Part shown: positions 9,127 to 45,044 of the stretch, piece after piece
How the letters are laid out: each line of letters opens with the position of its first letter
Position numbering within the stretch: the stretch's first letter is position 1
NCBI GenBank assembly: GCA_022450395.1
Contig: JAKUQE010000012.1
Location: forward strand, 2,810-66,809
DNA: 64,000 nucleotides
Origin: Dehalococcoidia bacterium
Lineage (GTDB): Bacteria; Chloroflexota; Dehalococcoidia; Lucifugimonadales; UBA3495
Direction of reading: 5' to 3'
Position numbers and translations under genes: made by a program
The notes under the pieces: model-generated
Seen by the model: only the letters and a program-made list of their open reading frames with translations
Told to the model about the DNA's origin: nothing
The model's database searches: none

Positions 9127-9714
9127 CTACAAGCCGAAGACTTGGGTGAGCCAGGCTAGGCTGTATTTGCAGGCGTAGGCGAAGGTGATGAACTTGATTG
9201 TCTTGCCCACCCAAACTACGCTCAGGAAGCCCCAAAGAGGGTACCGGAGGGCGCCGGCGGCGATGCCGACGATGTCGAAGATGGGGTTGGGCACCAGCGA
9301 AACCAAGAACAAGGGAAGCCAGCCCCGGCGGCGCACCAAGGACTCCAGCCGATTGTATAGGCGATACCTCCGGGCCATGTCTCGTCCGCTGTAACCCAGA
9401 AAGTACCCGGTTAGTTCGCCCACACTCTCGCTGGTCCCGGCGATGAGGCCCAAGAGCGCTGGGTTTAGGAAAATGGCCCCCGCGCATACCGCTCCCAAGG
9501 CGGGCACCGGAATTATCAGACCGGCGCTGGCGATCAGTGATGCCAGGGCCACTCCGCCGTAGCCTGCCTGAGCTGGGGTCAATTGATCCCGCAGTAAAAA
9601 GGCGGACGCCGAGGCGGCCAGGACCGCTAGGAGTATCCCGATCCGAATAAGGGTGCCGGGATTACGCCAATCCCACCGGGCGGGCGCGGAAAGCACCCGG
9701 ACCAAGCTGTTCAT
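9127..9714 (-). CDS. VTT/DedA-like (TVP38/TMEM64-type) membrane protein
   Basis: Multi-TM. GYFLGYSGRD..LVPNPIFDIVGIAAGALRYP resembles the VTT domain. 4-nt overlap with the upstream gene. Confidence 0.65.
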   Translation of the reverse strand: MNSLVRVLSAPARWDWRNPGTLIRIGILLAVLAASASAFLLRDQLTPAQAGYGGVALASLIASAGLIIPVPALGAVCAGAIFLNPALLGLIAGTSESVGELTGYFLGYSGRDMARRYRLYNRLESLVRRRGWLPLFLVSLVPNPIFDIVGIAAGALRYPLWGFLSVVWVGKTIKFITFAYACKYSLAWLTQVFGL

Positions 9715-10580
9715 AGAGAAACGGGCCCAGGGATGGACCCGCTTTGGTCATCCAGGCCGCCCTGAAGAAACAGGGTCAACAGGGCGTTGAACTCGTCGGC
9801 TTTCTCCATGTGGGGCCAATGCCCGCACTGAGGAAAGGTGCGTACCAAGCATTGGGGGATCGCCTCTTTTATCCTACCGGCGTGGCTTACCGGGATGATA
9901 ATGTCCTCTTCTCCCCAAAGGCACATCAGAGGAGAAGACACTTGAGGCAATCGATCAAGAACCCGCCATCGCCGGCGAAGCCCCAGGAGGTTAATGCTGG
10001 AGCGGATCGAGCGGAGGGTGGATCTGGTGGAGCCGGGCAAAAACTGGACACGGGCCATTTCGGTCAGCACCTCGTCGGGTATCGAAGACGGCTCATGAAA
10101 AACTCGCTTGTTCATACCCATCAGGCTGTATATCCAGCGCTGGAAGAGGAACTCCCCTAAACCGGGCACAGACATCAAACGTAACACCCAAGAAACCTGG
10201 CGGCCGATTCCTCCGGGAGCGACCAGCGCCAAGCGGCCGGTTTTCTCCGGATTCTCAAGAGCGAACAGCGCGGCCACCAGTCCCCCGGCTGAGTTACCCA
10301 CCAACGAAGCCCTCTCTACCCCCAAGGCGCGGAGAAACTGTCCGGTGAATTCGACGGCGTTGCGGGGGCCATAGTCCAGAGCATCTGGCTTTTCCGAGTC
10401 ACCGTGGCCGGGCAGGTCTGGGGCCAGAACCGTGAACCCCGCGTTGGCTAGGGGCTCAATATTTCGCCGCCAGGTGTCCAAGGACGAACCCAATCCGTGC
10501 AACAGCAACACCACCGGCCCTTGCCCGGCCTCCACGTAGTGGATATTGACCCCGTTAAGGGCGATTGTCTTGTGCTCCAA
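9711..10580 (-). CDS. alpha/beta hydrolase
   Basis: HGLGSS oxyanion region, nucleophile elbow GNSAGG, C-terminal CGHWPH. Confidence 0.85.
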   Translation of the reverse strand: MEHKTIALNGVNIHYVEAGQGPVVLLLHGLGSSLDTWRRNIEPLANAGFTVLAPDLPGHGDSEKPDALDYGPRNAVEFTGQFLRALGVERASLVGNSAGGLVAALFALENPEKTGRLALVAPGGIGRQVSWVLRLMSVPGLGEFLFQRWIYSLMGMNKRVFHEPSSIPDEVLTEMARVQFLPGSTRSTLRSIRSSINLLGLRRRWRVLDRLPQVSSPLMCLWGEEDIIIPVSHAGRIKEAIPQCLVRTFPQCGHWPHMEKADEFNALLTLFLQGGLDDQSGSIPGPVSL

Positions 10581-18423: not shown

Positions 18424-19425
18424 ATGGCAGAGCAGATCCATCCCAATATTGTTGCCCGGACTGTTGGAAGAGAATCGGTGCTAACCGTAGTCGGCGCCGC
18501 ACCGGACGCTAGGGGGCCGTGGTCTTTCATAACTGGGATACCGAACCCCGGCTTCGATATGGTTGGGCCTCCTGCCCAATACCTGTCGGTGGCTGCTTGG
18601 GCCGCTTGAACCGTGGTCACGGTGGTAGGCGTGGCCTACCGTGGCAACATCGCCCTGGAAGACATCATGGTCGATTTTGAGGTGGAGGCGGTTGAGCTTC
18701 CCAATGCGATCGGGTTCGGTGTTAGGGAACTTGTCACCCTGAAAGGCCGGATATCGGAGCCGGAGCGGGTCCGGCTTGAGCGGGCTTCCCGGTATTGCCC
18801 AGTTGGACAGGCTCTGACCAAGGGTTCCATGGAGATCGAGGATGAGATTCGATGGAGCAATGGTGAGGTGGCCTCAGCCTCTCCATTGACGGAATCCCTT
18901 CCCCCTTCGGACTGGGCTCTACCCGCCATACCTACCGGATCCGTCCATGGCCGATACCTTCTGGACACAAAAGAGTACGACGATGAAGGGAAGATGGAGC
19001 ACGAAGGGGAGGCCAAGATTTCCATCCAATGCCAAAACCTGACTCGGACAAGCCGCTGGACCATACTCGGCGGACATAGCTCTGAAGGCTGGGTAACGCC
19101 ACCGTTTCCCTTGGGCCACGCTGGGTGGGCAGCATCGACCGTTTCTACATTGAGCCGTCTGTTGCCCCAAGGGACGGAAGACGCAGATGGCCTCAGTGTG
19201 GAGTTGTATATGGCGGCCGGTGGCGGCGGTAGGGGGCAGTCCCAGTCCAACGCCGCCGAGGGCGTGGTGGCTCGCCGCGGGGTAACGCGCCGGATAATGG
19301 TGCCCGGAACTCCCAGCACCACCCCGATCGAGGCGGTACAAGCGGCGCTTCAACGCGACCCGATAACACTGGCCTACCTGAACGGGGGCGTACTTTTACA
19401 TGACGAGGTGGTGGTAGAGTCGTAG
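18424..19425 (+). CDS. OsmC/Ohr-like hydroperoxidase-family protein with in-frame TGA (18607-18609) at the first catalytic Cys position; candidate selenoprotein with a second degenerate OsmC-like half
   Basis: Track ORFs 18424-18609 and 18613-19425 share one frame. SD AGGAG precedes ATG 18424 and none precedes GTG 18613. The joined text is ..PPAQYLSVAAWAA[TGA]TVVTVVGVAY..RASRYCPVGQAL... A hairpin lies downstream. Confidence 0.7.
18618..18643 (+). promoter_or_regulatory. SECIS-like hairpin CAC-ggt-GGTAGGC-gtg-GCCTACC-GTG
   Basis: 7-bp upper stem, GTG loop, 3-nt 5' bulge, 3-bp lower stem. The loop lies 21 nt after the TGA. Confidence 0.5.
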
Positions 19426-19454
19426 GCGCGGATCCGCGGGAATGGCCGCCCGGA

Positions 19455-20261
19455 CTACGCTTTCAAGAACTCAATGATGTTGTCGCATACCTCTTCGAAC
19501 CGCTCCATCATCACGAGATGCCTGGCGCCTTTGATGACCACCAACCGCCCGTTCTGAACCCCTTCGGCTATGCCCCGTCCACCTATGCCTTGGGGGCCGG
19601 TGTCGACGGGGGAGTTGGCCGAGAACTCGCCGTTGATGACCAGGGTTGGGGCGGTGATGTTAGGTAGGTCTGGCCCCAGGTCGACGTCGTCACAGGCTTC
19701 CGAGGTCGCGATATACGTCTCCGGGGATATCTCGCAAAACGTCGACCGCATCTGGTCCAGTAAAGGGCCGGCTTCGGGACTGTCCAGAAAGTTTGAGGTC
19801 AGCACCGCCTGGGCCGTCAGTTCGGCGACCGCGATCATGCCTACGTTGGCGGCCAGGGCTTTGGCGAGTTTGCGGTTAAGGCGAAGCGCCGTATCGTATT
19901 TGGCCACCACTCCCACCAGCGCCATCTTTTTCACCCGCTCCGGGTGTTGCGCCGCGAATTGTATGGCAACCAAGCCCCCGGTGGATGTTCCGTGCAGATG
20001 GGCTTGCGGGATATCCAGAATGTCCATCAGATCGCGCAGGTCGTTGGTCCAGTCCTGCACCTTGTATCCCGGCGGCGTTGGGGTGCTCTTTCCGGTGCCC
20101 ACCAGATCGTAATCGATCACCCGGAAGTGGCGGGACAGGACCGGCGTGACCTTGGAGAAATTCTTCAATCCCAAAGCGCCGCCGGGGATCTGCACCAATG
20201 GCTCGCCTTCGCCGTTGATCTCGTACCAGATACGTTTCTCGCCTAGATCGGCAAATGGCAT
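19455..20261 (-). CDS. alpha/beta hydrolase
   Basis: Nucleophile elbow HGTSTGG, C-terminal GARHLVMME. Confidence 0.85.
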   Translation of the reverse strand: MPFADLGEKRIWYEINGEGEPLVQIPGGALGLKNFSKVTPVLSRHFRVIDYDLVGTGKSTPTPPGYKVQDWTNDLRDLMDILDIPQAHLHGTSTGGLVAIQFAAQHPERVKKMALVGVVAKYDTALRLNRKLAKALAANVGMIAVAELTAQAVLTSNFLDSPEAGPLLDQMRSTFCEISPETYIATSEACDDVDLGPDLPNITAPTLVINGEFSANSPVDTGPQGIGGRGIAEGVQNGRLVVIKGARHLVMMERFEEVCDNIIEFLKA

Positions 20262-20291
20262 CTCCGCCCCCTTTGAAGTTGCTCTGGCAGG

Positions 20292-20834
20292 TTAACGCAA
20301 GAGTTCGGCAAATTCCCCTCGGACTTTTGCTACCTTCGGCCTGATCACGATCTGACAATACATCATGTCCGGATTGTTCAGATAGAACTGCTTGTGGTCT
20401 TCCTCGGCCTCGTAGAAGGCTTCCAGGGGCACGACCTCGGTGACGATGGGGCCGGGCAATGAGCCGGAGGAATCCAGTTCCTTGATGTATGCTTCCGCCT
20501 GCTCTTTCTGGGCGTCGCCGGCATACAGGACCATCGACCGATAGTGGGTACCACTGTCAGCTCCTTGCCGGTTCAACGTGGTGGGATCGTGGGTTTCGAA
20601 GAATACGTCCAGGAGACGTTGATAGGAAATTTGATCAGGGTCGAACTGGATCTTAACTGCTTCGGCGTGGCCGGTATTGTCGGCGCATACCTGGCGATAC
20701 GTGGGGTTTTCCGTATGTCCACCCGCATAGCCTGGAACCACCATCAGCACGCCTTTAAGTTGAGAAAAGACCGCTTCGGTGCACCAGAAGCATCCCCCCG
20801 CGAATACCGCGGCCTCATGATTGTTTTCAGCCAT
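20292..20834 (-). CDS. msrA: peptide-methionine (S)-S-oxide reductase
   Basis: AVFAGGCFWCTEAVF active-site motif, 180 aa. Confidence 0.95.
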   Translation of the reverse strand: MAENNHEAAVFAGGCFWCTEAVFSQLKGVLMVVPGYAGGHTENPTYRQVCADNTGHAEAVKIQFDPDQISYQRLLDVFFETHDPTTLNRQGADSGTHYRSMVLYAGDAQKEQAEAYIKELDSSGSLPGPIVTEVVPLEAFYEAEEDHKQFYLNNPDMMYCQIVIRPKVAKVRGEFAELLR

Positions 20835-21298
20835 ATTTTTCCACCCGCTTTCTGACTATAAGATTTCCTGAAACCGAGTCTACTATAGACCATGGTGGTA
20901 TGACCACTGGGCAAGGCCGATTTGGGTAATTTTAGCGGTTCAGAAGGATGACAATAGTTCTGCTCAGACAACGCCATAGATACAGGCCAGCGCCCCATTG
21001 TGAGGGTCCATTGTCACTGGGATGTGTACAGCAAATACCCCTCATCCACCAGACGTGCCATCCTCTCCGTCTCCTAAAACCTCCCGGACAACAGCCTGCC
21101 GCACGGCATCCGCATCTTCGGTCAGGTCGTGTTCCATCGTGGAATAGTCGGCGTCAGGGATCTGCTGTTTTAAGGCGGCCATGAGGTTTGAATAAGGCTC
21201 CTCCAAGTCTCCAGCCAGGTCGATCAACAGCCGCCGGCAGGCCAGGATACCAACGACGTTGTTGATATCCTGGAAAACCTGAAGTTGCCCCCTCAGGC

Positions 21299-23587
21299 TT
21301 AGATGATATCCGTAGGGACCTGCATCCCTGGGGAGGCCAGGCTGCTCTGATAAGCTGCAAGGGCCTCTTTGGGCCTTCCGTTGCGTAATTGATGCTGGCC
21401 CATGTAGCCCCATCCGGCGCGGACACCGAGCCAATTGGCAATATTACTGTGTATCACCAAAGCTGTCCGAAACTTCTGAACAGCGTCTTCGTCATTCCCC
21501 TCCAAGGAGGCCACCAACCCAAGCATCTGCAGAGTGTTGGCCTCCCCCAGCCGGGCCTGGATTTCCCGGAAAATGGGCAGGGCTTCATCGTAGTGAGCGC
21601 GGGCGTCGCCCAAGCGGTCTTCCCGCAGGTCCAGGTCTCCCAGGGCCTGTAACGTGTTGGCCTCCCCCAGCCGGGCCTGGATTTCCCGGAAAATGGGCAG
21701 GGCTTCATCGTAGTGAGCGCGGGCGTCGCCTAGGCGGGCCTCCCGCAGGTCTAGGTCACCCAGGACCTCTCGGGAACTGGCCTCGAGAAATCCCCATTCT
21801 TGTTCAGTGGCGTCCCGGACGGCGTGCTCCAAGAGTTGCCTGAGCAGGGCGGTCTCCCACCTATAAGCGGCGAACTGAGCAACGTGGACGATAAACTCGG
21901 CCCTGCTTCGGGGGAGCGAATACTCGACTCCAGCGGGGGCGCCCGCATCTTTCACCATCACGCGAGCCGTGCGTTCCAGGTTGGTTGCCTCTTGGTGGAA
22001 AGCAAGAATAGCGTCGGTGGACCGGTTGTCAGTCACCAATCGACTGAGGTTCCCTGGGAAGGCAGCCATCACGCTAAAGAACCTGGCCTCATGTTCTCCT
22101 AGTTCCTCTCCGGATTCTTGCCTCACCACCTCCCGCATCAGGCGGTGCATGGAGAAGCGCCGGCCGCCGGCCTCACCTTCAGAAGCTACGAGCACCGAGC
22201 GCTGGCGCAACCGGTTCAGTTCACGTACCGCAGTGCTCTTGTCCTCGGGGTCAAGTTCGGCGACTTGGAGGAGCAGTGACTGGGGACCACCGCTCGCGGG
22301 TTCGAAGCAGGCTACGGAATAAAGCAGCCCACGGGCTGCGTCACCCAGGCCTCGCAGACTGAGTCTGAGCACCGCGTGCACGATGCGGTGGCCACGGGCC
22401 TCTTCGGCGCTCAACTCACGGTCGCCGATGGATTCGGGGACCAGGGCTTCCAATTGGTGGCTCTCATCTGGGTACATTTCCAACCACGACGAGACGGACA
22501 AATCCTCGGCGGCGATACTAGCGGAGGCCACGTCCACCGCGATGGGCTGGAAGCCCAGCATCTCGCACAACTGGTCTATCTCATCTTCCTCGTCCCGCCA
22601 TCGCTCCGGTCCCAAGGGGGATCGGAAAACGCCCCGCGCCTGTTCTGGGGTAAACTCTTCCAATCTCACTGGGTCTGCCCCGGTGACTTCCCGCAGTAGC
22701 GCTTCGTCTCTGGAGGTGACGATGGTTCGGCATAAGCCCCCTGGGTTGGGCAACAGCATCCGGACATCCGCTGGGTCGTCGGCGTTGTCGAGGATGAGCA
22801 GTCCTTCGTAGCGGGAAAGGGCCTCCCTAAGCACTCTGCTGACCTGGGCATCGGTGTGGTCCGGGTCGACCTGGAAGCCGAGGGCCAGCGCTAGGTCGGT
22901 CATGGCGCCTCGCACCCGGCCTGCGTCTAAGGAAACGTAGAGGGTTTTTCCGGGGCGGGTCTGCCGGGCATACCGTACCGCTAGCAAGCTTTTGCCGCCG
23001 CCACCGCCGCCGCCGATACCCACCACTTCTTCTGAGGAGAGCCGCCGGTCCAGCTCCGCAAGCTCGGGCCGGTCCACCCGGTAATGTTCGTCGGAGGGTA
23101 GTGATAGGGCAGGCGAGGAGGCGGGTCCAGACTGAGCGGCGGAGTGTGCTCCGGTGCTCAATACGTCGAGGGTTTGGACGGCCAAGGTTTCTAAGCGGCC
23201 CAGCGTTTCACCCTGCTCCGCAGCGAGGGAATTTGCCGCCAAGGTTGCGTCATCGGCTTGCGCCATGCGGGCGGCATCCCTAGCATTGAAATACCGGACG
23301 AGGGCCTCGGAGTCGGCAGACAAAACTGACCGGCAAACAGGCGCTATGAGCCGCGACATCCGCATTATGATGTCAAGAAGGGGTGGATTTGACTGGGTGT
23401 AGCTTGCCTTTAAGTCGGCGATGGTACCGAATCCATTCAGGAAATCGGCGAAACCGGGATCCCGGAGCAGGTTGACTATGCGGTGCCATTCCTCACTGCC
23501 CGCGGAAGTCCCGGAGCTGCTTCCATAATGGTTGATGACTCTCAGGGCGGCATTAGGGTAGGCTGCATTGAGCTTGCGCCGCACCAA
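21299..23587 (-). CDS. STAND (NB-ARC-like) P-loop NTPase with unassigned ~190-aa N-terminal domain and C-terminal TPR array
   Basis: Walker A GIGGGGGGGKSLLA and Walker B LLILDNADD. TPR units LGDARAHYDEALPIFREIQARLGEANTLQ. TTG/GTG start with AAGGA SD. Confidence 0.8.
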   Translation of the reverse strand: MVRRKLNAAYPNAALRVINHYGSSSGTSAGSEEWHRIVNLLRDPGFADFLNGFGTIADLKASYTQSNPPLLDIIMRMSRLIAPVCRSVLSADSEALVRYFNARDAARMAQADDATLAANSLAAEQGETLGRLETLAVQTLDVLSTGAHSAAQSGPASSPALSLPSDEHYRVDRPELAELDRRLSSEEVVGIGGGGGGGKSLLAVRYARQTRPGKTLYVSLDAGRVRGAMTDLALALGFQVDPDHTDAQVSRVLREALSRYEGLLILDNADDPADVRMLLPNPGGLCRTIVTSRDEALLREVTGADPVRLEEFTPEQARGVFRSPLGPERWRDEEDEIDQLCEMLGFQPIAVDVASASIAAEDLSVSSWLEMYPDESHQLEALVPESIGDRELSAEEARGHRIVHAVLRLSLRGLGDAARGLLYSVACFEPASGGPQSLLLQVAELDPEDKSTAVRELNRLRQRSVLVASEGEAGGRRFSMHRLMREVVRQESGEELGEHEARFFSVMAAFPGNLSRLVTDNRSTDAILAFHQEATNLERTARVMVKDAGAPAGVEYSLPRSRAEFIVHVAQFAAYRWETALLRQLLEHAVRDATEQEWGFLEASSREVLGDLDLREARLGDARAHYDEALPIFREIQARLGEANTLQALGDLDLREDRLGDARAHYDEALPIFREIQARLGEANTLQMLGLVASLEGNDEDAVQKFRTALVIHSNIANWLGVRAGWGYMGQHQLRNGRPKEALAAYQSSLASPGMQVPTDII
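21534..21730. repeat. 120-bp tandem duplication inside the TPR region (77 nt identical: 21534-21610 = 21654-21730)
   Basis: Lines 21541-21600 and 21661-21720 are identical. Flanks are similar with mismatches. Confidence 0.9.
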
Positions 23588-23976
23588 CCAGTCCTTGATG
23601 CGGCGGGCCGCGAGTCCACTCGCGAACTTGGCCGCTGCTGACGCAAATGCTTATGGGGCTAACATATATCCGCCACCCTGCCCCCGGCTCCCAAGCTTGG
23701 AGGGCTAAACAAAGATAGATGGTCATCGACACCGAGGCGAAGAATCGAGTATAACTGCCGTTCATCTACCTCAGCAAACCGGACATCTAATGAACTCAGC
23801 TGTTGTGTTCTGGGGCCGGAACCTAAATATTATTGATGAAGCGCGTGGGCGGCAAAATCAATAGCCGTCAATCTGACAGAAAGAGCTTCGGACCGTAGCG
23901 GTGGACAAGCCGCCCACCCCGACGTAACATGCGCCATGTTGGCAGCGGGGCGATTGCCGCCAGGCGAGGTGAATTC

Positions 23977-24972
23977 ATGGAACGGATCGGGCTTTCTTTC
24001 TCTGGGGGTCTCAATCCGCCGGATATAGTGGACTGTATCCAGCTTGCCGATGAGTTGGGGTATGAATCGGCGTGGATGGCCGAGGGGCATGGGGGTGATC
24101 AGTTCTCAATCCTGACCGCCTGCGCTCTCAGGACCAAGAATATCCTGCTGGGCACCAGCATCACCAGCGTTTTCGTCCGTAGCGCCCCTACCATCGCCAT
24201 GGCCGCCGCATCGGTGGACCACTTTTCTCAGGGGAGGTTCGTGCTGGGTTTGGGAACCAGCCACAAGGTCCAGGTGGAGCCGGAGCATGGGTTGGTGTTC
24301 GAAAAGGCGGTGCCTCGCCTGCGGGAGTGCGTTGAGATCGTTCGGGAGTTGTTGCAAAAGGGCGAGGTGTCCTATCAGGGTAGCGTGTACGACATAGAAA
24401 ACTTCGACTTTTGGTTCGAGCCTTTGCGAAGGGAGATACCAATATATGTGGCCGCCGTTTTCCCTAAGATGCTCGAGGTCTGCGGAGAGATCGCCCAAGG
24501 CGCCCTGATGACTTGGTGCACCCTGGAGCATGCTGAGACCGCGGCGGCCCACGTGGCAGAGGGGGCGAAACGGGCCGGGCGCGACCCCAGCGAGGTAGAC
24601 GTGGCTACGCTGATGCCTTGCGCGGTGGGTAGCTCGGGCGAAGGGGCCATTGCGGGACTGAAGACCAACATCGCCAGGTACGCCGCCAAGTTCCCCCGGT
24701 ACCGCAAGTTGATGGAGGACGCCGGCTTCGCCGAGGAACTCCAAGCGGTGCGCCGTGCCTGGAATGACGGCAATGAAGCGGAAGCCATCTCATTGGTCCC
24801 CGACGAACTCGTCGACTCCATCGCGCTGGTGGGTAGCGCCGAAAAAGCCAGGAGCCGGCTGGATGAGTATCGCCGCGCGGGCATCACCCAGCCGATCATT
24901 TCTCCCCGGGTTTCCGGCGAAAACTCCAAAGAAGAAGCGATGCAGATCATCCGGGCGTGCGCGCCTAGATAG
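23977..24972 (+). CDS. LLM-class (luciferase-like) flavin/F420-dependent oxidoreductase
   Basis: MERIGLSFSG..ADELGYESAWMAEGH. SD GAGGTG before ATG 23977. Confidence 0.85.
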   Translation: MERIGLSFSGGLNPPDIVDCIQLADELGYESAWMAEGHGGDQFSILTACALRTKNILLGTSITSVFVRSAPTIAMAAASVDHFSQGRFVLGLGTSHKVQVEPEHGLVFEKAVPRLRECVEIVRELLQKGEVSYQGSVYDIENFDFWFEPLRREIPIYVAAVFPKMLEVCGEIAQGALMTWCTLEHAETAAAHVAEGAKRAGRDPSEVDVATLMPCAVGSSGEGAIAGLKTNIARYAAKFPRYRKLMEDAGFAEELQAVRRAWNDGNEAEAISLVPDELVDSIALVGSAEKARSRLDEYRRAGITQPIISPRVSGENSKEEAMQIIRACAPR

Positions 24973-25125
24973 AGGTTTGGCGATGTTGCGGTCTCAGAAA
25001 GCGTCGATCATAGCCAGAGCGTTGTCATCGTCGCCAGAGGGATATTCTTTCGATCGATCAGTAGATCGACGGGCAGTGCCTGCGGGCGTCTGGCGGGCTG
25101 ACGGCATTGAACAGGCCGGTGATGA

Positions 25126-25482
25126 ATGGCGGTTGTAATATTTGATTCCGATTGCGCGGTGTGACAGGCGTTTAGGCGCTGGGTAGCGCTTCGCGACAAT
25201 CGCTCACGGATCCGGTTCGTTGGTAATGAATGCGACGAGTCGGCCGAACTACTTCCTCACCTGTCAAAATTCGAGCGCACGCGCACGATCCACTGGGTAG
25301 ACGACGAAGGTGGTCACCGGCAGGGAGCGCGCGCCATCTTCACGATCGTCGGCGCAACGGCGAGCCGCCTCGGCCCGATCGCAAGACTCTTTGCCCGTTG
25401 GCCCCTATACGTCCTCGCGGAACCTTGGTACCGAATCTTCGCTCATCACAGAGGAAGATTCGCTCGATTCGCCGGGAAGTGA
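25126..25482 (+). CDS. DCC-family (DUF393-type) thiol-disulfide oxidoreductase with in-frame TGA (25162-25164) at the second Cys of DxxCxxC; candidate selenoprotein
   Basis: Not in the ORF track. Translation: MAVVIFDSDCAV[TGA]QAFRRWVALRDNRSRIRFV...ARAIFTIVGATASRLGPIARLFARWPLYVLAEPWYRIFAHHRGRFARFAGK*. The family-like text continues for 105 codons after the TGA. Confidence 0.7.
25168..25194 (+). promoter_or_regulatory. SECIS-like hairpin GCG-ttt-AGGCGC-tgggta-GCGCTT-CGC
   Basis: 6-bp upper stem (one G-U pair), 6-nt loop containing GGU, 3-nt U bulge, 3-bp lower stem. The upper stem begins 9 nt after the TGA. Confidence 0.5.
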
Positions 25483-28643: not shown

Positions 28644-30050
28644 ATGGCTGACTACGACTATGACATGCTCGTTATCGGCTCCGGCCCGGCGGGCCAGCGG
28701 GCGGCTATTCAGGCGGCCAAGTTGGACAAGCGGGTGGCTATCGTCGAGCGAAATGAGACGGTCGGCGGGGCGGCCGTGAACGTGGGCACCATCCCCAGCA
28801 AGACGCTCCGGGAGGCGGTGCTGTACCTTTCAGGGTACCGGGAGCGGGGGTTGTATGGTGATGCCTACGTGGTTAAAAGAGATGTGCGGCTTGCGGACCT
28901 GCTCGTACGGACCGATTACGTCACCCGTCACGAGGTCGACGTTACCCTGAATCAGATATTGCGAAACCGGATAGAGCTGCTGACTGCGGAAGCCTCGTTT
29001 ATCGACCCTCATTCACTCCATCTTATCTACACCGACGGCAGAGGCCATCGTGACGTGACGGCCGACAAGATCATAATCGCCGCCGGTACGTCAGCCACCA
29101 AACCGGACAATGTTCCCATCGACGGAATACAGATTTTTACCAGCGACGACATCTTGGGTCTGGACCGTCTCCCTCGTACGCTCACCGTCGTTGGAGCTGG
29201 GGTCATCGGGTGCGAATTCGCCAGTATCTTCGCCACCCTGGGAGTCCGGGTCACGTTGATAGATAAATACCCCCGATTGTTGACCTTCGTCGACTCGGAG
29301 ATCGTGGAATCGTTGGTGTACCACATGCGGCAGAACCGCGTTATCCTCCGCCTAGGTGAGGAGGTCGAACGCATCGAGGCGGTAGACGACGGGAAAGGGG
29401 ATAGGGTACGGATCCACCTGGCCAGCGGTAAGCGGATAGTTAGCGAGAAAGCCCTCTACAGTATCGGCCGTACCGGGTCGACGAACGGCCTTAACTTGAG
29501 TGCCGCGGGACTTGAACCGGATGACCGGGGCCGCATCAGCGTCAACGACTTCTTTCAAACCGATACACCGAACATCTACGGCGCCGGTGACGTAGTTGGC
29601 TTTCCCAGTCTGGCTTCTACTTCCATGGAACAGGGCCGGATCGCGGCTTGTCATGCCTTCAGCGTTGAGACCAATCTAATGCCGGAACTCTTCCCCTACG
29701 GTATCTATACCATACCGGAAATATCCACCGTAGGATTGAACGAAGAAGAGCTGACGAAGCAGGGCGTGCCTTACGAGGTTGGCAAAGCCCAGTATCGGGA
29801 GATCGCACGCGGTCAGATCATCGGCGACCGCACTGGATTGCTCAAATTGATTTTTCATCTTGAAACACACGCGCTCCTGGGCGTGCACATCATCGGCGAA
29901 GGCGCCAGCGAGCTGGTCCACATAGGTCAAGCCGTCCTGGCCTACGGTGGCAAGGTGGACTACTTTTTAGACACAATCTTTAACTATCCTACCCTGGCTG
30001 AATGTTACAAAACAGCGGCCTTCGACGGAATCAATCGGCTTTCCGTCTGA
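28644..30050 (+). CDS. sthA: soluble pyridine nucleotide transhydrogenase-like flavoprotein
   Basis: FAD motif VIGSGPAGQRAA. GGAAVNVGTIPSKTLREA lacks the CxxxxC disulfide of lipoamide dehydrogenase, as in SthA. 468 aa. Confidence 0.8.
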   Translation: MADYDYDMLVIGSGPAGQRAAIQAAKLDKRVAIVERNETVGGAAVNVGTIPSKTLREAVLYLSGYRERGLYGDAYVVKRDVRLADLLVRTDYVTRHEVDVTLNQILRNRIELLTAEASFIDPHSLHLIYTDGRGHRDVTADKIIIAAGTSATKPDNVPIDGIQIFTSDDILGLDRLPRTLTVVGAGVIGCEFASIFATLGVRVTLIDKYPRLLTFVDSEIVESLVYHMRQNRVILRLGEEVERIEAVDDGKGDRVRIHLASGKRIVSEKALYSIGRTGSTNGLNLSAAGLEPDDRGRISVNDFFQTDTPNIYGAGDVVGFPSLASTSMEQGRIAACHAFSVETNLMPELFPYGIYTIPEISTVGLNEEELTKQGVPYEVGKAQYREIARGQIIGDRTGLLKLIFHLETHALLGVHIIGEGASELVHIGQAVLAYGGKVDYFLDTIFNYPTLAECYKTAAFDGINRLSV

Positions 30051-37626: not shown

Positions 37627-38394
37627 CTACTTGTCCCGGTATCCCCTGGGGGTTGCCATGTGCCCCTGCAGCACGTAGGTCGTGGAGTTTCCGATGACCA
37701 CGGTAGTGACCATGTTGATGTCCTCGGCGATCTCTTCAAGCCCTTCCAGGTCGGTGATAGTTACCTGTTGCCCGGGCCGAAAGGCGTCCTTGACGACACC
37801 GACTGGGGTTTTACCGGAGCGATGCTCCAGAAGTATGCGCCGGGCCTCCATCAGTTGCCATTGGCGGGTCCGGCTGCGGGGGTTGTATAGGGCGACGACG
37901 AAATCTCCCTGGGCTGCCGCCTTCAGCCGCTGTTCGATGGCCGTCCATGGCGTCAGCAGGTCGCTGAGGCTGATGGCGCAGAAGTCCTGCATCAAGGGCG
38001 CGCCCAGCAAGGCGGCGGCAGCCTGCATGGCGGAGATGCCGGGCACCGTTTCCACTTGAGGGTTGATCCCGTCCCAATCCAAACCATTTAGTACCTGGAA
38101 CACCGGGCCGGACATGCCGTAGATGCCGGCGTCACCCGAAGACACCACCGACACCACCCGCCCCGCGTATGCCAACTCGACGGCTTTGGACGCCCGCTCA
38201 ATCTCCTGGCCCAGCTCCATGGAGACGAGTTCCTTGCCAGCTAGCAAGTCTCCGGCCTGTTCGATATACGCACGGAATCCGACAACCACGTCCGATTCTT
38301 GCAGGGCCGACATGGCCGCACCCGTCAAGTATTCAGCCTCGCCGGGTCCTAGCCCAACAAGATACAGCTTGCCTTGTTTGTTGTCGTTAGCCAC
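37627..38394 (-). CDS. cbiH: cobalt-factor III / precorrin-3B C17-methyltransferase
   Basis: KLYLVGLGPGEAEYLTGAAMSALQESDVVVGF. GTG start. Confidence 0.9.
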   Translation of the reverse strand: MANDNKQGKLYLVGLGPGEAEYLTGAAMSALQESDVVVGFRAYIEQAGDLLAGKELVSMELGQEIERASKAVELAYAGRVVSVVSSGDAGIYGMSGPVFQVLNGLDWDGINPQVETVPGISAMQAAAALLGAPLMQDFCAISLSDLLTPWTAIEQRLKAAAQGDFVVALYNPRSRTRQWQLMEARRILLEHRSGKTPVGVVKDAFRPGQQVTITDLEGLEEIAEDINMVTTVVIGNSTTYVLQGHMATPRGYRDK

Positions 38395-38396
38395 AG

Positions 38397-38807
38397 AGCC
38401 ACAGAGACACGGAGGGTTTATAGAATGAGACGTTTGAAGCCATTTGTTAGCAACCTTGAGTTAAAGTTCATTAACAGACCAACTTTCTTGCCGGTGATCC
38501 TTAGGTAGGTTAACACTTGGGCCTCGAAGAGGGGATCCCGACGCTCAACATTTTTAATTTCCACCACCACCGCATCTTCCACGACGAGGTCAATCCGGTA
38601 ATCACCAATCTGTTCCCCTTTCTAGGTGAGTGGTATCGGCACCTGTCGTTGATAATGTAGCCCTTGGAGACCCAACTCGACACATAGGGCTGCCTCGTAG
38701 GCGCTCTCGAGAAGACCTGGCCCCAAATGCCGATGTACTTCTATCCCGCACCCTATGATCTTTTCCGTGATTTTATTTAACTCTGTGATCTCTGCGTCTC
38801 TGTGGCT
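38397..38807. repeat. 12-nt perfect inverted repeats AGCCACAGAGAC (38397-38408) / GTCTCTGTGGCT (38796-38807) bracketing the GxxExxY relic
   Basis: Read directly on both flanks. The right copy encodes the last residues of CbiG. Confidence 0.7.
38418..38795 (-). pseudogene. GxxExxY-family (PD-(D/E)XK-like) protein relic with in-frame TAG (38632-38634) and no evident start codon
   Basis: Minus-strand text HRDAEITELNKITEKIIGCGIEVHRHLGPGLLESAYEAALCVELGLQGLHYQRQVPIPLT*KGEQIGDYRIDLVVEDAVVVEIKNVE..LLMNFN. The TAG sits where the family has Tyr (YKG). Confidence 0.75.
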
Positions 38808-39943
38808 AATTCGGTTTGATCGCCCCGAAACACCATGCGGGCCACGGCGACGGTTGCGCGGTCGGTTTTGGTTTTGGTGACTAATAGTTCAGTCGCGGCG
38901 GAAGCTAACAGGGCGGCGGGTTCGCATACGCCCCAGATTCCCAACAATCTATGGGGTTCTGGAGAGGGTGTTAGACCCATTTCAGAGCCTTCAGGAGGGA
39001 ACATGGAGTTCAGATCTGATTCGCCGTAGCAGTGGACCGGCACTTGGAGCTTGTCCGCCATCTGTCCGATTCCCTCTTCGTCGCGCTTTAACTCGGCGGT
39101 GGCGATGCAGTTGATGCTGGCCTTAGCCAGGTTGTTATCGCGGAATGTAGTGTCGATCAGGTGCTCTAGATGTTCCATGGGGACGCCACGGCGGCACCCC
39201 AAGCCGACTGCCAGGCTACGAGGCCGATATAACACGACGAATTTGCCGGGCAAGGCATCCGAATAGGTCTTTTCGCTTGGAGCATCCTGGGCAGTCCGAT
39301 CGGTGATTATCAACGCGGCGGCACATGCGGAATCAGCCAGGGCTTTAAAGGATGGGTAGACCTTGACGTTGTCCGGTAGCGGCTGGCCGGAAGGCCACCA
39401 GCCGGTCTCCCCGGCCTCCTGGTATATGCCCACCGGCTCTCCGTTTATGGAGGCGGCGCTGGCTCGTGTGACGGTCTGGGGGTCCGCTTCTACCTGCCAA
39501 CCGAATTCCTGACCAAGTAAGTCCACGGCCAGGCGTCCGGTCACGTGGGATGCCGAGGTCACGACAGGAGAAGCGTCCAGGATGGAGGCCACTTCTGTAG
39601 CCAGCCTGTCAGCCCCGCCCAGGTGTCCCGAAAGCAGGCTGACGGCGAACCGTCCGGCGTCGTCGACGCAAACAACGGCAGGGTCACGGTGCTTGTGCTC
39701 CAGGCATGGAGCCAGCAGCCTGACCGCTGCCCCCACGGGCATGAAGAGCACCAATCGCTGGCACTCTTGGAAAACACTTTGAACCAGAGGGCGGGCCGGC
39801 AGGTCGAAAGCTACTGCGTTATCTTCCCCAACCAAAAAGCGCCGGTCCAGATAAAGGGTTGAGCCGCCGTCTAATTCGGTGGCAAGCTTACGGGCCAGCA
39901 CTGCGCCGTTACGGGAAATAGCGACGATGGCGGTATCGGTCAT
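38777..39943 (-). CDS. cbiG: cobalt-precorrin-5A hydrolase
   Basis: MTDTAIVAISRNGAVLARKLA.. start at 39943. Position between cbiF and cbiH. The track ORF start 40117 overlaps cbiF. Confidence 0.85.
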   Translation of the reverse strand: MTDTAIVAISRNGAVLARKLATELDGGSTLYLDRRFLVGEDNAVAFDLPARPLVQSVFQECQRLVLFMPVGAAVRLLAPCLEHKHRDPAVVCVDDAGRFAVSLLSGHLGGADRLATEVASILDASPVVTSASHVTGRLAVDLLGQEFGWQVEADPQTVTRASAASINGEPVGIYQEAGETGWWPSGQPLPDNVKVYPSFKALADSACAAALIITDRTAQDAPSEKTYSDALPGKFVVLYRPRSLAVGLGCRRGVPMEHLEHLIDTTFRDNNLAKASINCIATAELKRDEEGIGQMADKLQVPVHCYGESDLNSMFPPEGSEMGLTPSPEPHRLLGIWGVCEPAALLASAATELLVTKTKTDRATVAVARMVFRGDQTELATETQRSQS

Positions 39944-39953
39944 GGCCTGGTGT

Positions 39954-40805
39954 TCACTGCCCGCCGTCGACGCTGGAGCCCTCCTCCACATCGGAAGACT
40001 CCCCCTCGGCCCGGCGGTAGAGGTGGGTGTAGTCGCTGGCATAGAGGTGGGACGACGACACGCCGTTGGCCGTGGTGGGCACGTGATGAAGCAGGGCCGG
40101 GTCCATCGCCTCGCCAACCATGATTAGAGCCTGCAAGGTGATCTTGGCATCCCTGACTTTGGCGGCAATGTCGCTCAGGGTGCCTCGAATAATCTTTTCG
40201 TCCGGCCAGCCCACCCGGTAGACAACTGCTACCGGAGTGGATTCGGTGTAACCCGCTTCTAACAATTGGCGCACCACGGTGAACATCCGCGTGATACTTA
40301 AAAATATGACCAGCGTGGAACCGTGAGCTGCCAGGTCTTTCAGTTGTTCTCCGGGTGGCATGGAGACACGGCCTTGTGCCCGGGTCATGATCACTGTCTG
40401 GGACCCGCCGGGGATGGTCAATTCAACTTTCAGCCGGGCGGCCGCCGCGAAGGCCGCGCTTACCCCCGGTATGATTTCGTAATCTACCTGGGCCTCTTCC
40501 AAGATGCGCATCTGTTCCAGGACGGCCCCGTAGATAGAAGGGTCGCCGCTCTGGATGCGAGCCACCGTCTTCCCTTGGCGAACTGACTCCAATGTCAGCT
40601 CCATGATTTCGCTCAGGTTCAGAGTCTTGCTGCCATGGACCTCGGCGCCGGGCTTGGCGAAATCCACGATGGAAGGATGGACCAGGGAGTCGGCGTATAT
40701 GATTACATCGGCGGACTCGATCACAGATTTGGCTTTCAACGTCAACAACTCCGGGTCGCCGGGGCCGCCGCCAACTATATATACCTTGCCTTGGCTTTGA
40801 GCCAT
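39954..40805 (-). CDS. cbiF: cobalt-precorrin-4 C11-methyltransferase
   Basis: KVYIVGGGPGDPELLTLKAKSVIESADVIIYADSLV. Confidence 0.9.
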   Translation of the reverse strand: MAQSQGKVYIVGGGPGDPELLTLKAKSVIESADVIIYADSLVHPSIVDFAKPGAEVHGSKTLNLSEIMELTLESVRQGKTVARIQSGDPSIYGAVLEQMRILEEAQVDYEIIPGVSAAFAAAARLKVELTIPGGSQTVIMTRAQGRVSMPPGEQLKDLAAHGSTLVIFLSITRMFTVVRQLLEAGYTESTPVAVVYRVGWPDEKIIRGTLSDIAAKVRDAKITLQALIMVGEAMDPALLHHVPTTANGVSSSHLYASDYTHLYRRAEGESSDVEEGSSVDGGQ

Positions 40806-40809
40806 TCTT

Positions 40810-41535
40810 TTACCTCTTGATTATCAGAAGGGAGAAATAGTCCAGGTCTTCCTCGGAGAGCGTGCTAAGGTCCCTGACCACCTCTTCCCGGGCGGTGCTG
40901 GCACGGCGTACGTATATGCCCTTTCCGGCCAAGCCCAGTTGCTCCAGATTGGCCAGCGCTTGTAGCAGGGTGCGATTCACCTTCATGAGGACGATGGTGT
41001 CGTAGTTGGCGATGGCTTCGGATAGGTCGTCGATGCCATAGACCGCCGGCAGGATCACCAATCTCTGGCCGTGGGTGACCAGGGGAACTCCGGCGCTGGC
41101 TGCCGCCGCCATGACGGAGGACACGCCGGGAATGATCTCCACGGTAACCTCAGGGTATCCCGACGTGATGCTGTCTAACACGTAAGAAAAGGTGCTGTAC
41201 AGCATGGGGTCGCCTTCGGTGATAAACGCAACGTCCTTTCCCTGTGTGAGGTGGCCACCGATGGTGTCGGCGGCGTTCCGCCAGACCGCCGCGGCTCCCG
41301 CTTCGTCGTCGATGGGGAACGGAATCCGGATGATTTCCTGTTTTTGCTCGTCCAGGTATTCCCGCACGATGTCCAAAGCATAGCTTTCCTGGCTGGTCTC
41401 CGAGCGAGGTGTACATATTACCGGCACGTCTTGGAGAATCCGTAGGGCTTTCAACGTGAGCAACTCCGGGTCGCCGGGACCCACTCCCACTCCGTAGAAG
41501 CACCCTAAGTTGGTGCTATTTCCCGTGGTGCTCAT
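40810..41535 (-). CDS. cbiL: cobalt-factor II / precorrin-2 C20-methyltransferase
   Basis: FYGVGVGPGDPELLTLKALRILQDVPVICTP. Confidence 0.9.
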   Translation of the reverse strand: MSTTGNSTNLGCFYGVGVGPGDPELLTLKALRILQDVPVICTPRSETSQESYALDIVREYLDEQKQEIIRIPFPIDDEAGAAAVWRNAADTIGGHLTQGKDVAFITEGDPMLYSTFSYVLDSITSGYPEVTVEIIPGVSSVMAAAASAGVPLVTHGQRLVILPAVYGIDDLSEAIANYDTIVLMKVNRTLLQALANLEQLGLAGKGIYVRRASTAREEVVRDLSTLSEEDLDYFSLLIIKR

Positions 41536-41539
41536 CGGG

Positions 41540-42172
41540 CTATCCTTCTCGCAGGGCGGTCACCACGAAGACCGGGTTAAGGGCCTCCAAACGGACCGTC
41601 CCGTCGGGCATATCTTTTCCTCTGGACGAGTTCACCATAACCATGTCGGCAACAAAACCCGACGACTTGAAGCGATGGTACACTTCATTGGTGCGCTCCA
41701 AAGCAGCCAGGTTAACTACGATGCGGCCGCCTGCTCGCAGCCGCTTTATTGCCACGTCTAATATCTCCGCCAGGCGTCCGCCGCTGCCTCCCACGAACAC
41801 CGCGTCTGGGTCAGGTAATTCCACCAATGCGTCCGGCGCTGCTCCGGAGACAATATGAACGTTCTTTGAACCCCACCGCTCCACGTTACGCCGGAGCAGC
41901 GGCAAGCTCTCTTCGTCACGCTCCACGGCGTAGACAGTGCCTTCCCGGGCGATTATAGACGCTTCGACAGAGATGGACCCGGTGCCTGCTCCGATGTCCC
42001 AAACCACGCTGCCGGGCCGGAGACCCAGGGAATAGAGGCTGACCGCGCGCACTTCCCGCTTGGTGATCTGCCCCTGCAGCGGGCGCCGTTGCTCGAAAGC
42101 ATCGTCGGGGAGGCCCAAGGCCCGTTGCGAGGCCGCCTGCAATTTCTCAACCATTGGTTTAACTTCCCGCAA
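41540..42172 (-). CDS. cbiT: cobalt-precorrin-6B C15-methyltransferase (decarboxylating)
   Basis: ITKREVRAVSLYSLGLRPGSVVWDIGAGTGSISVEA. Confidence 0.85.
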   Translation of the reverse strand: MREVKPMVEKLQAASQRALGLPDDAFEQRRPLQGQITKREVRAVSLYSLGLRPGSVVWDIGAGTGSISVEASIIAREGTVYAVERDEESLPLLRRNVERWGSKNVHIVSGAAPDALVELPDPDAVFVGGSGGRLAEILDVAIKRLRAGGRIVVNLAALERTNEVYHRFKSSGFVADMVMVNSSRGKDMPDGTVRLEALNPVFVVTALREG

Positions 42173-43358
42173 CGGCGGTCAGTGGGATGCCCCCGGGCGA
42201 CGTGGAGGCCTGGCCCAAGAGGGCGCCGTCAAAATCGAAGCACAGGCTATCGACGATCAGCTTGCCGGCGTCGTCGCCAAGTAGCTTATGGCTTTCTTCG
42301 CAGACCATCTCGCACATCAATGTAAACACCGATCCCAGACCGTTGGCCAGCGCCACTTCCTGAAAGTGGCGGGCGCTGGCGGCCTGGCGTATTTCCTCTT
42401 GCACCGCATCGGTCGCGCCGCATTGGGCGGCTAGGGAAGCCAAGAAGGTAGTGTCGACCCGGTTCCCGGCCACGTGGGTCACGAAATATCCCATGGCCAT
42501 TTTAGAAAGCTTGCCGACCATGCCGGCGTGGGTAGCCCGTTGGACATTGCGCATCACACATCTTTTCAATGACGGTCCGCTGAAGATGCCCGCCTCGATG
42601 TAGGCCATGTCCGGCAGGTCCAAAACCTTTTTGGTGAAGATCTCGCTCTGGGTGCCGGTGGAAAGCACCAAGTGGGACAAGTCGTTGGTTGCCGCTACGT
42701 CTATGGCCATGTTTGCGCTGGCCCGCCATGCCGCAGTGGAAAAGGGCTGGACCACGCCGGTGCTGCCCAGAATGGATATCCCTCCCAGGATACCCAGGCG
42801 CGAGTTGGTGGTCTTTTCCGCGATCGCTTCGCCGTTGGGAACGGAGATCTCCACGACTAATCCGGTTTCAGATGGAAGGCCGTGAGCAGTGGCCGCTTCG
42901 TTCACAGAGTCGATTATCATGCGCCGGGGTACCCGGGTGACGGCCGGTTCGCCTACCTCGATCCCGACACCGGGGCGGGTCACTGTTCCCACGCCGATAC
43001 CCCCGGTGATCCGTACTTTATCGGCGAAGTTTGGGTCCCGGTAGACCGTGGCGCATATCTCCGCTCCGTGGGTGACATCCGGATCGTCGCCGCCGTCCTT
43101 GATGACCGAGCAGGTCACTCTGCTTCCATCATCCGAGGTCTGGCATCGGTGGATCTCGAAGGTGACCGCTCTTCCTACCGGCAACTGAATCGTTGATTGG
43201 CCAACCGATTCCCCCGTGAGCAAGGATCGGGTGGCGGCCTTGGCCGCGGCTGCCGCGCATGACCCGGTGGTATACCCGGTGCGCAGGCCCCCTCGCTTAA
43301 CCGTTTGCCTGCTGTAGTCGCTTTCCGGCCTTTGGTCCGGATTCGGTTTGTCAACCAT
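42159..43358 (-). CDS. cbiD: cobalt-precorrin-5B C1-methyltransferase
   Basis: GLRTGYTTGSCAAAAAKAA N-terminal signature. Confidence 0.9.
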   Translation of the reverse strand: MVDKPNPDQRPESDYSRQTVKRGGLRTGYTTGSCAAAAAKAATRSLLTGESVGQSTIQLPVGRAVTFEIHRCQTSDDGSRVTCSVIKDGGDDPDVTHGAEICATVYRDPNFADKVRITGGIGVGTVTRPGVGIEVGEPAVTRVPRRMIIDSVNEAATAHGLPSETGLVVEISVPNGEAIAEKTTNSRLGILGGISILGSTGVVQPFSTAAWRASANMAIDVAATNDLSHLVLSTGTQSEIFTKKVLDLPDMAYIEAGIFSGPSLKRCVMRNVQRATHAGMVGKLSKMAMGYFVTHVAGNRVDTTFLASLAAQCGATDAVQEEIRQAASARHFQEVALANGLGSVFTLMCEMVCEESHKLLGDDAGKLIVDSLCFDFDGALLGQASTSPGGIPLTAVAGS

Positions 43359-43391
43359 CGTGTCTTATCCGGTCACATGCTGGCGAGAGCA

Positions 43392-44315: not shown

Positions 44316-44962
44316 GTCGACGCCTTCTGATCTATCAGCGACAGCAGGGCGTTGACGGTGGCCGCGGCTGCCGAGCTGCCGCCGCGCCTTCCGTGCACGG
44401 TGATATAGGGGATGGGACCGGCGGCCAGTTCTTCTTTCGACTCGGCGCAGGCCACGAATCCCACAGGCATACCGATGATGAGTCTTGGCAAGGCTTTCCC
44501 TTCTTGAACCAAGTCCAGCAATGCTAGCAATGCGGTGGGGGCATTACCCACGGCCACAACTGATCCGTTCAGATACGGAGCTAATTCCCGAATGGCCGCC
44601 ACCGAACGGGTGGTTCCCTCGCTTTGGGCGCGGGCCGCGACTTCCGGGGTGTCTATGCGGCATTGGGTGGCGACTTGATGGCTCTTGAGCAAGGCTTTGG
44701 ATATTCCCATCTCCACCATCCGCACATCGGTAACGACCACTGCCCCGTCCCGAAGAGCGCCGATACCCAGGTCCACCGCTCCTGGGCTGAAGGACACGTC
44801 CAATGCTATCTGAGGGTCCCCTTCGGCCCGGACGATTCGGCTAACCACGTAGCGCTCGTTGCCGCTTAACGAGAGAGAACCGGGCAGGGAAGCCTCCACC
44901 ATTTTCAGGCTTTCCCGGTCGATCTCGTCCGGCAGCAAAGCGTATTTTTCAACCAGTGACAT
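44312..44962 (-). CDS. cbiC: cobalt-precorrin-8 methylmutase
   Basis: VVAVGNAPTALLALLDL, HGRRGGSSAAAATVNALL. Confidence 0.9.
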   Translation of the reverse strand: MSLVEKYALLPDEIDRESLKMVEASLPGSLSLSGNERYVVSRIVRAEGDPQIALDVSFSPGAVDLGIGALRDGAVVVTDVRMVEMGISKALLKSHQVATQCRIDTPEVAARAQSEGTTRSVAAIRELAPYLNGSVVAVGNAPTALLALLDLVQEGKALPRLIIGMPVGFVACAESKEELAAGPIPYITVHGRRGGSSAAAATVNALLSLIDQKAST

Positions 44963-45044
44963 ATCGGCTACTTTTGGGCCAGCCGGAGACGGCTGTCACT
45001 TCTTCCGGATGAATTTGCCGCTGCGACCGGCACCCCCATCCTAA

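Follow-up and report, generated by a model that had tools for sequence, protein, structure and literature searches.

Two in-frame UGA codons in OsmC-like and DCC1-like redox genes of a SAR202-group bacterium are very probably read as selenocysteine

Bacterial selenocysteine insertion sequence (SECIS) elements follow a consensus model of Zhang and Gladyshev. In the summary given in PMC13188914, this model has a loop of 3–9 nucleotides (nt), a stem of 4–16 bp, a G in the first two loop positions (usually then G or U) and 16–37 nt from the UGA to the loop. OsmC-like selenoproteins (PF02566, 'UxxT') are a known family, recorded from the Sargasso Sea data of 2005 and the Global Ocean Sampling data of 2008 and listed in Table 1 of the same paper, while the DCC1-like family is absent from its 2026 inventory of 119 selenoprotein families. 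Here, a stretch of 64,000 nt from a Dehalococcoidia bacterium was analyzed (contig JAKUQE010000012.1 of assembly GCA_022450395.1, positions 2,810 to 66,809 of the forward strand; this whole stretch is called the window). It carries two thiol-redox genes, each interrupted by an in-frame TGA: gene 1, which is OsmC/Ohr-like, and gene 2, which is DCC1-like. A first-pass annotation had proposed both TGAs as selenocysteine (Sec) recoding sites followed by SECIS-like hairpins, a proposal that the comparative data on both genes supported. The sequence comparisons make it very probable that both genes, which come from a bacterium of the SAR202 group (Dehalococcoidia, Chloroflexota), truly encode selenoproteins, with UGA read as Sec.

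Gene 1 starts with an ATG at 18424, with AGGAG about 9 nt upstream, and ends with a TAG at 19423–19425, giving a protein of about 333 amino acids (aa). Its features are as follows.

18424..19425, plus strand: gene 1, predicted tandem OsmC/Ohr-like selenoprotein gene, 334 codons including the UGA and the final stop
18607..18609, plus strand: in-frame UGA, codon 62 and the sole internal TGA, at the place of the peroxidatic Cys, probably read as Sec
18623..18641, plus strand: putative SECIS core, conserved, 8-bp stem U GGUAGGC / GCCUACC G with loop GUG (from the fold, covariation and RNAalifold)
18618..18643, plus strand: extended hairpin 1 of the first-pass annotation, lower stem CAC/GUG with GGU bulge, present in the window and unconserved in the orthologue alignment
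18796..18798, plus strand: codon of Cys125 (TGC) in the invariant motif C-P-V-G-Q (from invariant columns and alignment to the Ohr CP motif)
18916..19422, plus strand: C-terminal half, probable degenerate second OsmC-like domain with Ser at the peroxidatic and Asp at the resolving position (from hhalign and a structure model)

When Cys was substituted at the stop, the Pfam OsmC profile (PF02566) matched gene 1 across it (residues 51–138, 30.5 bits against a cut-off of 27.5). Residue 62 aligned with the peroxidatic Cys, in its A-C-F/T context, of the solved Ohr/OsmC-like structures 4noz and 4mh4, and the invariant Cys125 aligned with the resolving Cys of Ohr/OsmC. No NCBIfam model matched the protein of gene 1 or gene 2.

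The database homologues of gene 1 were nearly all cut at the same place. Among the best 120, 119 were proteins of 242–272 aa that start just after the TGA; the one full-length match, P0005, has W at the TGA position and is therefore probably a gene call made with table 4. Genomic loci were collected by a tblastn scan with one genome per species, which gave 59 Dehalococcoidia/SAR202 loci, many of them on closed chromosomes. TGA was found at the identical codon in 58/59 of these species-level loci, at protein identities from 95% down to 49%, and the surrounding peptide was conserved as (A/G)WAA-U-T(V/I/A)VT(V/L)(V/M/A)GVA(Y/H/D)R. Only L064 (OZ244795.1, match from 10001) lacked the N-terminal ~100 residues, Sec site included, perhaps as a pseudogene or through a rearrangement. 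The 120 best homologues and the 59 loci included no Cys orthologue.

The hairpin behind the gene-1 UGA was conserved together with the codon. In the window it reads CAC-GGU-GGUAGGC-GUG-GCCUACC-GUG, and its 7-bp upper stem begins 14 nt after the UGA. In an alignment of 59 sequences over 60 nt from the UGA, the upper stem (columns 18–24 with 28–34) was 99.8% paired. RNAalifold gave an 8-bp stem (17–24 with 28–35) closing a 3-nt loop GUN, and the loop was GUN in 59/59 sequences. This core stem starts 13 nt after the UGA, and the distance from the UGA to the loop is 21 nt. Compensatory variation was observed at pair 21–31 (AU 35, GU 16, GC 4, CG 3) and at pair 19–33 (GC 54, AU 2, GU 2), and the covariation score was attained by 0 of 500 shuffles. 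The GC and CG variants of pair 21–31 are coupled to Tyr-to-His and Tyr-to-Asp replacements, so the protein is altered while the RNA pairing is retained. The hairpin covers codons +5 to +11, of which +5, +7, +9 and +10 had a synonymous entropy of 0 bits, compared with 1.3–1.9 bits at neighboring fourfold codons; the frozen codons are GTG (44/44), GGC (59/59), GCC (59/59) and TAC (52/52).

The layout that had been ascribed to both hairpins, a 3-bp lower stem with a 3-nt bulge on the 5′ side, fared differently. The gene-1 lower stem (helix 12–14/35–37) was 74% paired, its middle pair 13–36 was broken in 33/58 sequences, and RNAalifold retained the upper stem and loop only; the 'bulge' is thus no conserved feature, and the analogy once drawn to the bulged U of the E. 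coli fdhF SECIS is left unsupported. A separate observation concerns the Ala codon before the gene-1 UGA (18604–18606 in the window), which is GCU in 57/59 sequences (L007–L065) with a third-position entropy of 0.25 bits, while nearby Ala codons vary freely. Selection seems to act on the U directly 5′ of the UGA, perhaps because the codon context affects recoding.

Gene 2 lies downstream in the window and opens with an ATG at 25126. It has the following features.

25126..25482, plus strand: gene 2, predicted DCC1-like (DUF393) thiol-disulfide oxidoreductase selenoprotein gene, 118 aa (from the translation and Pfam PF04134)
25153..25155, plus strand: first Cys of the C-A-V-U redox motif, the invariant C10 of the family alignment
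25162..25164, plus strand: in-frame UGA, codon 13, at the second Cys of CxxC, probably read as Sec (TGA in 4 close and 9 distant lineages)
25174..25191, plus strand: putative SECIS core, 7-bp stem AGGCGCU / AGCGCUU with loop GGGU (from the fold and orthologues)
25168..25194, plus strand: extended hairpin 2 of the first-pass annotation, lower stem GCG/CGC with UUU bulge, present and unchanged in close relatives, whose similarity is too high for a test

The Pfam DCC1-like profile (PF04134) matched gene 2 over its full length (E 2e-15, 58.3 bits against a cut-off of 27.8; residues 4–113 on profile positions 1–111 of 113). The N-terminal motif F-D-S-D-C-A-V-U fits the family pattern D-x-x-C-x-x-C, with Sec as the last residue. 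Homologues were collected by exhaustive HMMER and profile searches with the post-TGA part as the HMMER query; a word-indexed search gave five truncated matches only. The TGA aligned with the second Cys of CxxC in P0126, P0132, P0134, P0136, P0151 and P0152, among which P0126 (CAAC), P0151 (CDVC) and P0152 (CAVC) are full-length Cys forms at about 50% identity to gene 2. Both in-frame TGAs were thus present in thiol-redox genes with Pfam matches and, as had been claimed, both stand at a catalytic Cys. Many other homologues of gene 2 are N-terminally truncated proteins that start just past the motif. The full-length homologue P0154 has W at the Sec position. In P0125 (108 aa), the first half is the gene-2 protein and the second half resembles the reverse strand upstream of gene 2; it is probably an inverted chimeric assembly, and a similar junction occurs in L070.

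Both close and distant relatives of gene 2 kept the TGA. In the close orthologues (81–91% identity; L007/L066, L067, L068 and L069) it is retained, the five inner base pairs of the stem are intact, and the loop is GGGU or GGGC. In nine distant lineages, at about 25–45% identity, an in-frame TGA was found at the second Cys in 9/9, within the following motifs.

L071: CVV*NVF
L072, L073 and L078: CPV*
L074: CAV*
L075: CGV*
L076 (a metagenome-assembled genome, MAG, of Acidobacteria): CGV*
L077 (a Dehalococcoidia MAG): CAI*
L079/L080: CKV*

In the window, hairpin 2 reads GCG-UUU-AGGCGCU-GGGU-AGCGCUU-CGC and ends at 25194. Folding recovered both hairpins as they had been drawn, with upper stems 14 and 9 nt after the UGA. 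The core stem of hairpin 2 starts at that 9-nt distance, and the distance from the UGA to the loop is 16 nt (17 nt in the distant DCC lineages). All nine distant lineages carry a hairpin (N)CGCUG-GGUN-CAGCG(N) over R-W-V-Q-R codons (R-W-L-Q-R in L077), which was 95% paired. Both sides change at 3/7 pairs, namely 14–31 (UA/GC), 15–30 (CG/UA/UG) and 18–27 (CG/UA); the covariation score was attained by 1 of 500 shuffles, and RNAalifold agrees. The loops are GGUG, GGUU, GGUA, GGUC and one GCUU. The window clade has V-A-L where the distant lineages have V-Q-R, with the stem register shifted by 1–2 nt, and both keep a 7-bp stem and a tetraloop that begins with GG. Hairpin conservation in orthologues that carry the TGA, which the first-pass annotation had named as a check on its proposal, was found for both genes. 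For the two genes, TGA conservation, protein conservation on either side of it, equivalence to Cys, and hairpin conservation with covariation are established directly.

These alignments also bear on the view that the TGAs are true stops, so that the loci would be pseudogenes or would each hold two cistrons (a 61-aa or 12-aa peptide and a downstream protein), with incidental or regulatory hairpins. Public annotation takes this form: in public assemblies (L001–L006), gene 1 is called as separate open reading frames (ORFs) of 61 aa and 264 aa and gene 2 is not called, and NCBI labels the truncated pieces 'hypothetical' or 'OsmC family'. A match to the window was recognized through an identical MsrA protein next to gene 1, both in the MAG GCA_054821085.1 (contig JAKJII010000224.1) and in several assemblies of marine metagenomes. 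However, the gene-1 TGA is shared by 58/59 species with amino acids conserved on either side, the gene-2 TGA recurs in 13 other lineages (4 close, 9 distant), the Pfam OsmC domain crosses the TGA, and the N-terminal 12 residues of gene 2 hold the D-x-x-C motif of the family. Pseudogenes would not keep one stop codon at one position across 49–95% protein identity. We regard true stops as very improbable. More improbable still are a genome-wide reassignment of UGA (table 4 or 25) and errors of sequencing or assembly at both codons. The W in P0005 and P0154 shows that some pipeline used table 4, and the gene callers probably switched to that table on these contigs. About one quarter of the long ORFs of the window nevertheless end in TGA, including the AlaRS gene at 48637–51582, whose Pfam matches extend up to residue 977 of 981, and scans of the window did not show housekeeping genes in which TGA often stands in frame at the place of a conserved Trp or Gly. 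Against an assembly error, the same TGA recurs across numerous assemblies and samples that are independent of each other. The TGA-ending ORFs, the conservation of the TGA across species and the independent assemblies led us to reject reassignment, pseudogenes and assembly error.

The two hairpins were then compared with described SECIS elements. As in the bacterial consensus, a stem-loop lies within the coding sequence (CDS) directly after the UGA in both genes, with 7–8 bp, a 3-nt loop and a distance of 21 nt in gene 1, and with 7 bp, a 4-nt loop and a distance of 16 nt in gene 2. Both loops begin with G, followed by U or G, and the structure is kept with compensatory changes in the gene-1 orthologues and in the distant relatives of gene 2. 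In contrast to the E. coli fdhF and fdnG elements, to which neither hairpin has sequence similarity, the bulged U is unconserved in the gene-1 orthologues. What hairpins 1 and 2 have in common is the generic bacterial SECIS form only: a stem, a small G-first loop and a suitable spacing to the UGA. Their sequences are specific to each family and overlap conserved codons, which spell V-V-G-V-A-Y-R in gene 1 and, in gene 2, R-W-V-Q-R or R-W-V-A-L. Rfam searches gave no matching family, whether at the gathering threshold or with E values of up to 10.

In other systems, a structure downstream of a stop codon can promote its read-through. It may thus be asked whether a near-cognate or suppressor tRNA (Trp, Cys or Arg) reads these UGAs independently of a SECIS, with the hairpin slowing the ribosome or hindering RF2 and with selenium-free products. 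Such a stimulating role of structure, and the fact that Sec machinery was seen in none of the sequence examined (the window and related loci), fit this explanation. Nevertheless, the UGA lies exactly at the catalytic Cys in both families, and Sec/Cys exchange is the defining signature of selenoproteins (PMC13188914). The loops keep G first, the spacing is within the SECIS window, and an OsmC/Ohr enzyme with Trp or Arg at its peroxidatic position would be inactive. SelA and SelB are, moreover, reported in a SAR202 MAG that carries a gene-1 orthologue. We consider read-through of this kind improbable.

The machinery for Sec was searched for in the sequence at hand. No tRNA-Sec was found by ARAGORN or Rfam in the window, nor by ARAGORN in the 59 related loci, where an 8/4-type tRNA might escape ARAGORN, and a Pfam scan of about 60 ORFs of the window gave no SelA, SelB or SelD. 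The earlier statement that the 64 kb hold no selA/B/D or tRNA-Sec agrees with these scans. The tblastn searches with approximate E. coli SelA, SelB and SelD probes gave no match in the related loci, a weak negative because the probes are approximate and the loci cover <1% of each genome. Chloroflexi are recorded as Sec users (PMC1794560), and their tRNASec is of an unusual 8/4 type (PMC5389517). The locus L036 is contig MPMM01000004.1 of the SAR202 'bin22' (PMC5649159 Table 2) and carries a gene-1 TGA orthologue. For bin22, 2 COG1921 (SelA) genes and 1 COG3276 (SelB) gene are listed, and both COGs are present in 5/5 SAR202 bins (Slaby et al. 2017, PMC5649159 Table S4).

Several points weigh against the conclusion that UGA is read as Sec in both genes. 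Selenium insertion is a prediction from sequence. None of selA, selB, selC and selD turned up in the window or across the related loci, about 1.2 Mb in total. The SelA and SelB counts of bin22 are COG annotations taken from the paper, and SelA-like paralogues can fall under COG1921. A SECIS-like hairpin of at least 7 bp follows 2.9% of the 1711 TGA triplets in the window, and one of at least 6 bp follows 6.4%. The fold z-scores of the two 60-nt stretches were −0.6 and +1.0, so that single-sequence energies are no better than those of shuffles. Within the window clade, hairpin 2 shows conservation only and no compensatory change, and a Leu-to-His replacement breaks two outer pairs in L066 and L067. 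The tandem-domain reading of the gene 1 product depends on two results described below, an hhalign probability of 85% and a structure model whose mean pLDDT is 59.5. Given the 2.9% background and the unremarkable z-scores, the hairpin alone is weak evidence, and the decisive evidence is comparative. A codon-usage scan for TGAs with coding signal on both sides gave the two sites just 0.02–0.23 bits per codon, which is too weak and comes with no useful null. A scan of the unoccupied space of the window found no third TGA-split ORF besides genes 1 and 2.

With Sec insertion as the preferred reading, the decoding mechanism would be the ordinary bacterial one. The in-frame UGA would be decoded as selenocysteine during translation, and the stem-loop just 3′ of it, within the CDS, would act as a bacterial SECIS that brings SelB-GTP-Sec-tRNASec to the ribosome, with selA, selB, selC and selD presumably located elsewhere in the genome. 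Sec rather than another amino acid, the binding of SelB and the catalytic chemistry are the parts of this scheme that we infer. Possible novelty lies in one family, in a variant architecture and in the connection with SAR202.

The variant architecture concerns the gene 1 product, which appears to be a single chain of two tandem OsmC/Ohr-like domains. When a profile of the N-terminal 150 residues was compared with one of the C-terminal 183 residues by hhalign, the halves matched with a probability of 85% (E 6.6e-6, 110 columns), with AAWAA-U-T opposite AAWAA-S-T and R-Y-C-P-V opposite Q-R-D-P-I. BLASTP gave no match between the two halves, so that the duplication is visible by profile–profile comparison only. 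The AlphaFold2 model of the homologue P0005 had moderate confidence (mean pLDDT 59.5, pTM 0.64); its strand and helix order is alike in both halves, and its Foldseek matches in the PDB are all Ohr/OsmC. The redox pair, predicted to be Sec62 (peroxidatic) and Cys125 (resolving), would be retained in the N-terminal domain only. These results suggest, with moderate confidence, that the gene 1 protein is a fused pseudo-dimer with one Sec/Cys active site. Known Ohr/OsmC enzymes are homodimers of Cys-containing subunits. Gene 1 resembles the two-cysteine hydroperoxide reductases of this group (4noz, 4mh4, 6mjn, 1qwi) in fold and sequence matches, with Sec62/Cys125 in the places of the peroxidatic and resolving Cys, and differs from them in its predicted use of Sec and in its apparent pseudo-dimer form with one active site. 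It also differs from single-domain OsmC proteins (about 140 aa in solved Ohr/OsmC chains) in having about 333 aa, with an active and a degenerate domain in tandem. With the published OsmC-like selenoproteins it shares the OsmC Pfam domain, Sec at the peroxidatic Cys position and a marine metagenomic origin. Compared by description only, its motif U-T-V-V-T has Thr at +1 and +4, not at the +3 of the label 'UxxT', and the Sec form is near-universal in SAR202 (58/59), with no Cys orthologue seen. As to chemistry, the selenolate would reduce a hydroperoxide, the resulting selenenic acid would condense with Cys125, and a thiol donor would recycle the selenenylsulfide.

The gene 2 product would be a DCC1-like thiol-disulfide oxidoreductase with its CxxC as CxxU, probably a selenol/thiol exchange enzyme. 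It resembles the DCC1-like/DUF393/YuxK family (PF04134) in its full-length Pfam match, the N-terminal position of the D-x-x-C-x-x-C motif and its length of about 120 aa, and differs in its predicted Sec at the place of the second Cys. The CxxU selenoproteins (SelW-like, AhpD-like, CMD-like) likewise carry Sec as the C-terminal residue of a CxxC-type motif near the N-terminus. Their fold family is different, and the likeness is one of redox motif only.

We were also interested in whether the two proteins are functionally related. In 7/59 SAR202 genomes, the Sec-OsmC gene is directly preceded, on its own strand, by a Cys-form DCC gene (about 136 aa, F-Y-D-S/G-x-C-P-V-C), at these places.

L025, L026, L028, L053, L054 and L057, about 9340–9900, same strand as the Sec-OsmC gene: Cys-form DCC gene
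L044, 8538–8903, same strand as the Sec-OsmC gene: Cys-form DCC gene

Because of this adjacency, DCC and OsmC-like proteins may work together, and the gene 2 protein could be a redox partner of the gene 1 protein. In the window the two genes are 6.5 kb apart, with other redox genes between or near them.

20292–20834, minus strand: MsrA, Cys form (G-C-F-W-C), redox neighbor
28644–30050: pyridine-nucleotide disulfide oxidoreductase, redox neighbor
61406–62116, minus strand: glutaredoxin-like protein resembling the AhpF N-terminus, Cys form (C-P-H-C)
37627–46460, minus strand: cobalamin biosynthesis cluster (corrin methylases, CbiG, CbiD, CbiX, CbiC), then glutamyl-tRNA reductase

The MsrA and glutaredoxin/AhpF-like families have Sec forms in other bacteria and are Cys forms in the window. 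A STAND NTPase/TPR gene (762 aa, 21299–23587, minus strand) contains a 120-bp unit twice, at 93% identity (21534–21768), which duplicates a TPR pair.

If the two genes encode selenoproteins, public annotation is systematically wrong here, with gene 1 split or truncated and gene 2 mostly uncalled, and the Trp artefact of table 4 (P0005, P0154) could be used for finding selenoprotein genes. Several marine lineages have DCC1-like genes with a TGA at CxxU; these come from SAR202/Dehalococcoidia, from Acidobacteria and from unbinned metagenome contigs. The relatives of the window are all Dehalococcoidia/SAR202-cluster MAGs. The DCC1-like genes with a TGA have their own conserved hairpin over F-x-R-W-V-Q-R codons and are systematically truncated or missed by gene callers. 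A full-text literature search pairing selenoprotein or selenocysteine with the DCC family, PF04134 or DUF393 found nothing, and selenium use by SAR202 was not discussed in the literature searched. The two hairpin alignments would be clean examples of SECIS evolution within a CDS, with replacements that keep the RNA pairing (Asp or His for Tyr in gene 1, Ala-Leu for Gln-Arg in gene 2).

SAR202 is among the most abundant bacterial groups of the dark ocean. We lean, by a modest degree, toward the view that DCC1-like (DUF393, PF04134) CxxU proteins are a selenoprotein family missing from the inventory and that SAR202 depends on Sec for a lineage-wide tandem OsmC-like peroxidase. With the DCC1-like family, the known selenoproteins would then gain a thiol-disulfide oxidoreductase fold. 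That DCC and OsmC-like genes are neighbors in seven genomes suggests that a poorly understood DUF-type family has a physiological partner, and the DCC protein may be the dedicated redox partner of the tandem OsmC-like peroxidase. A predicted Sec-dependent peroxide-detoxifying enzyme in 58/59 species-level genomes would imply a standing selenium requirement of the clade.

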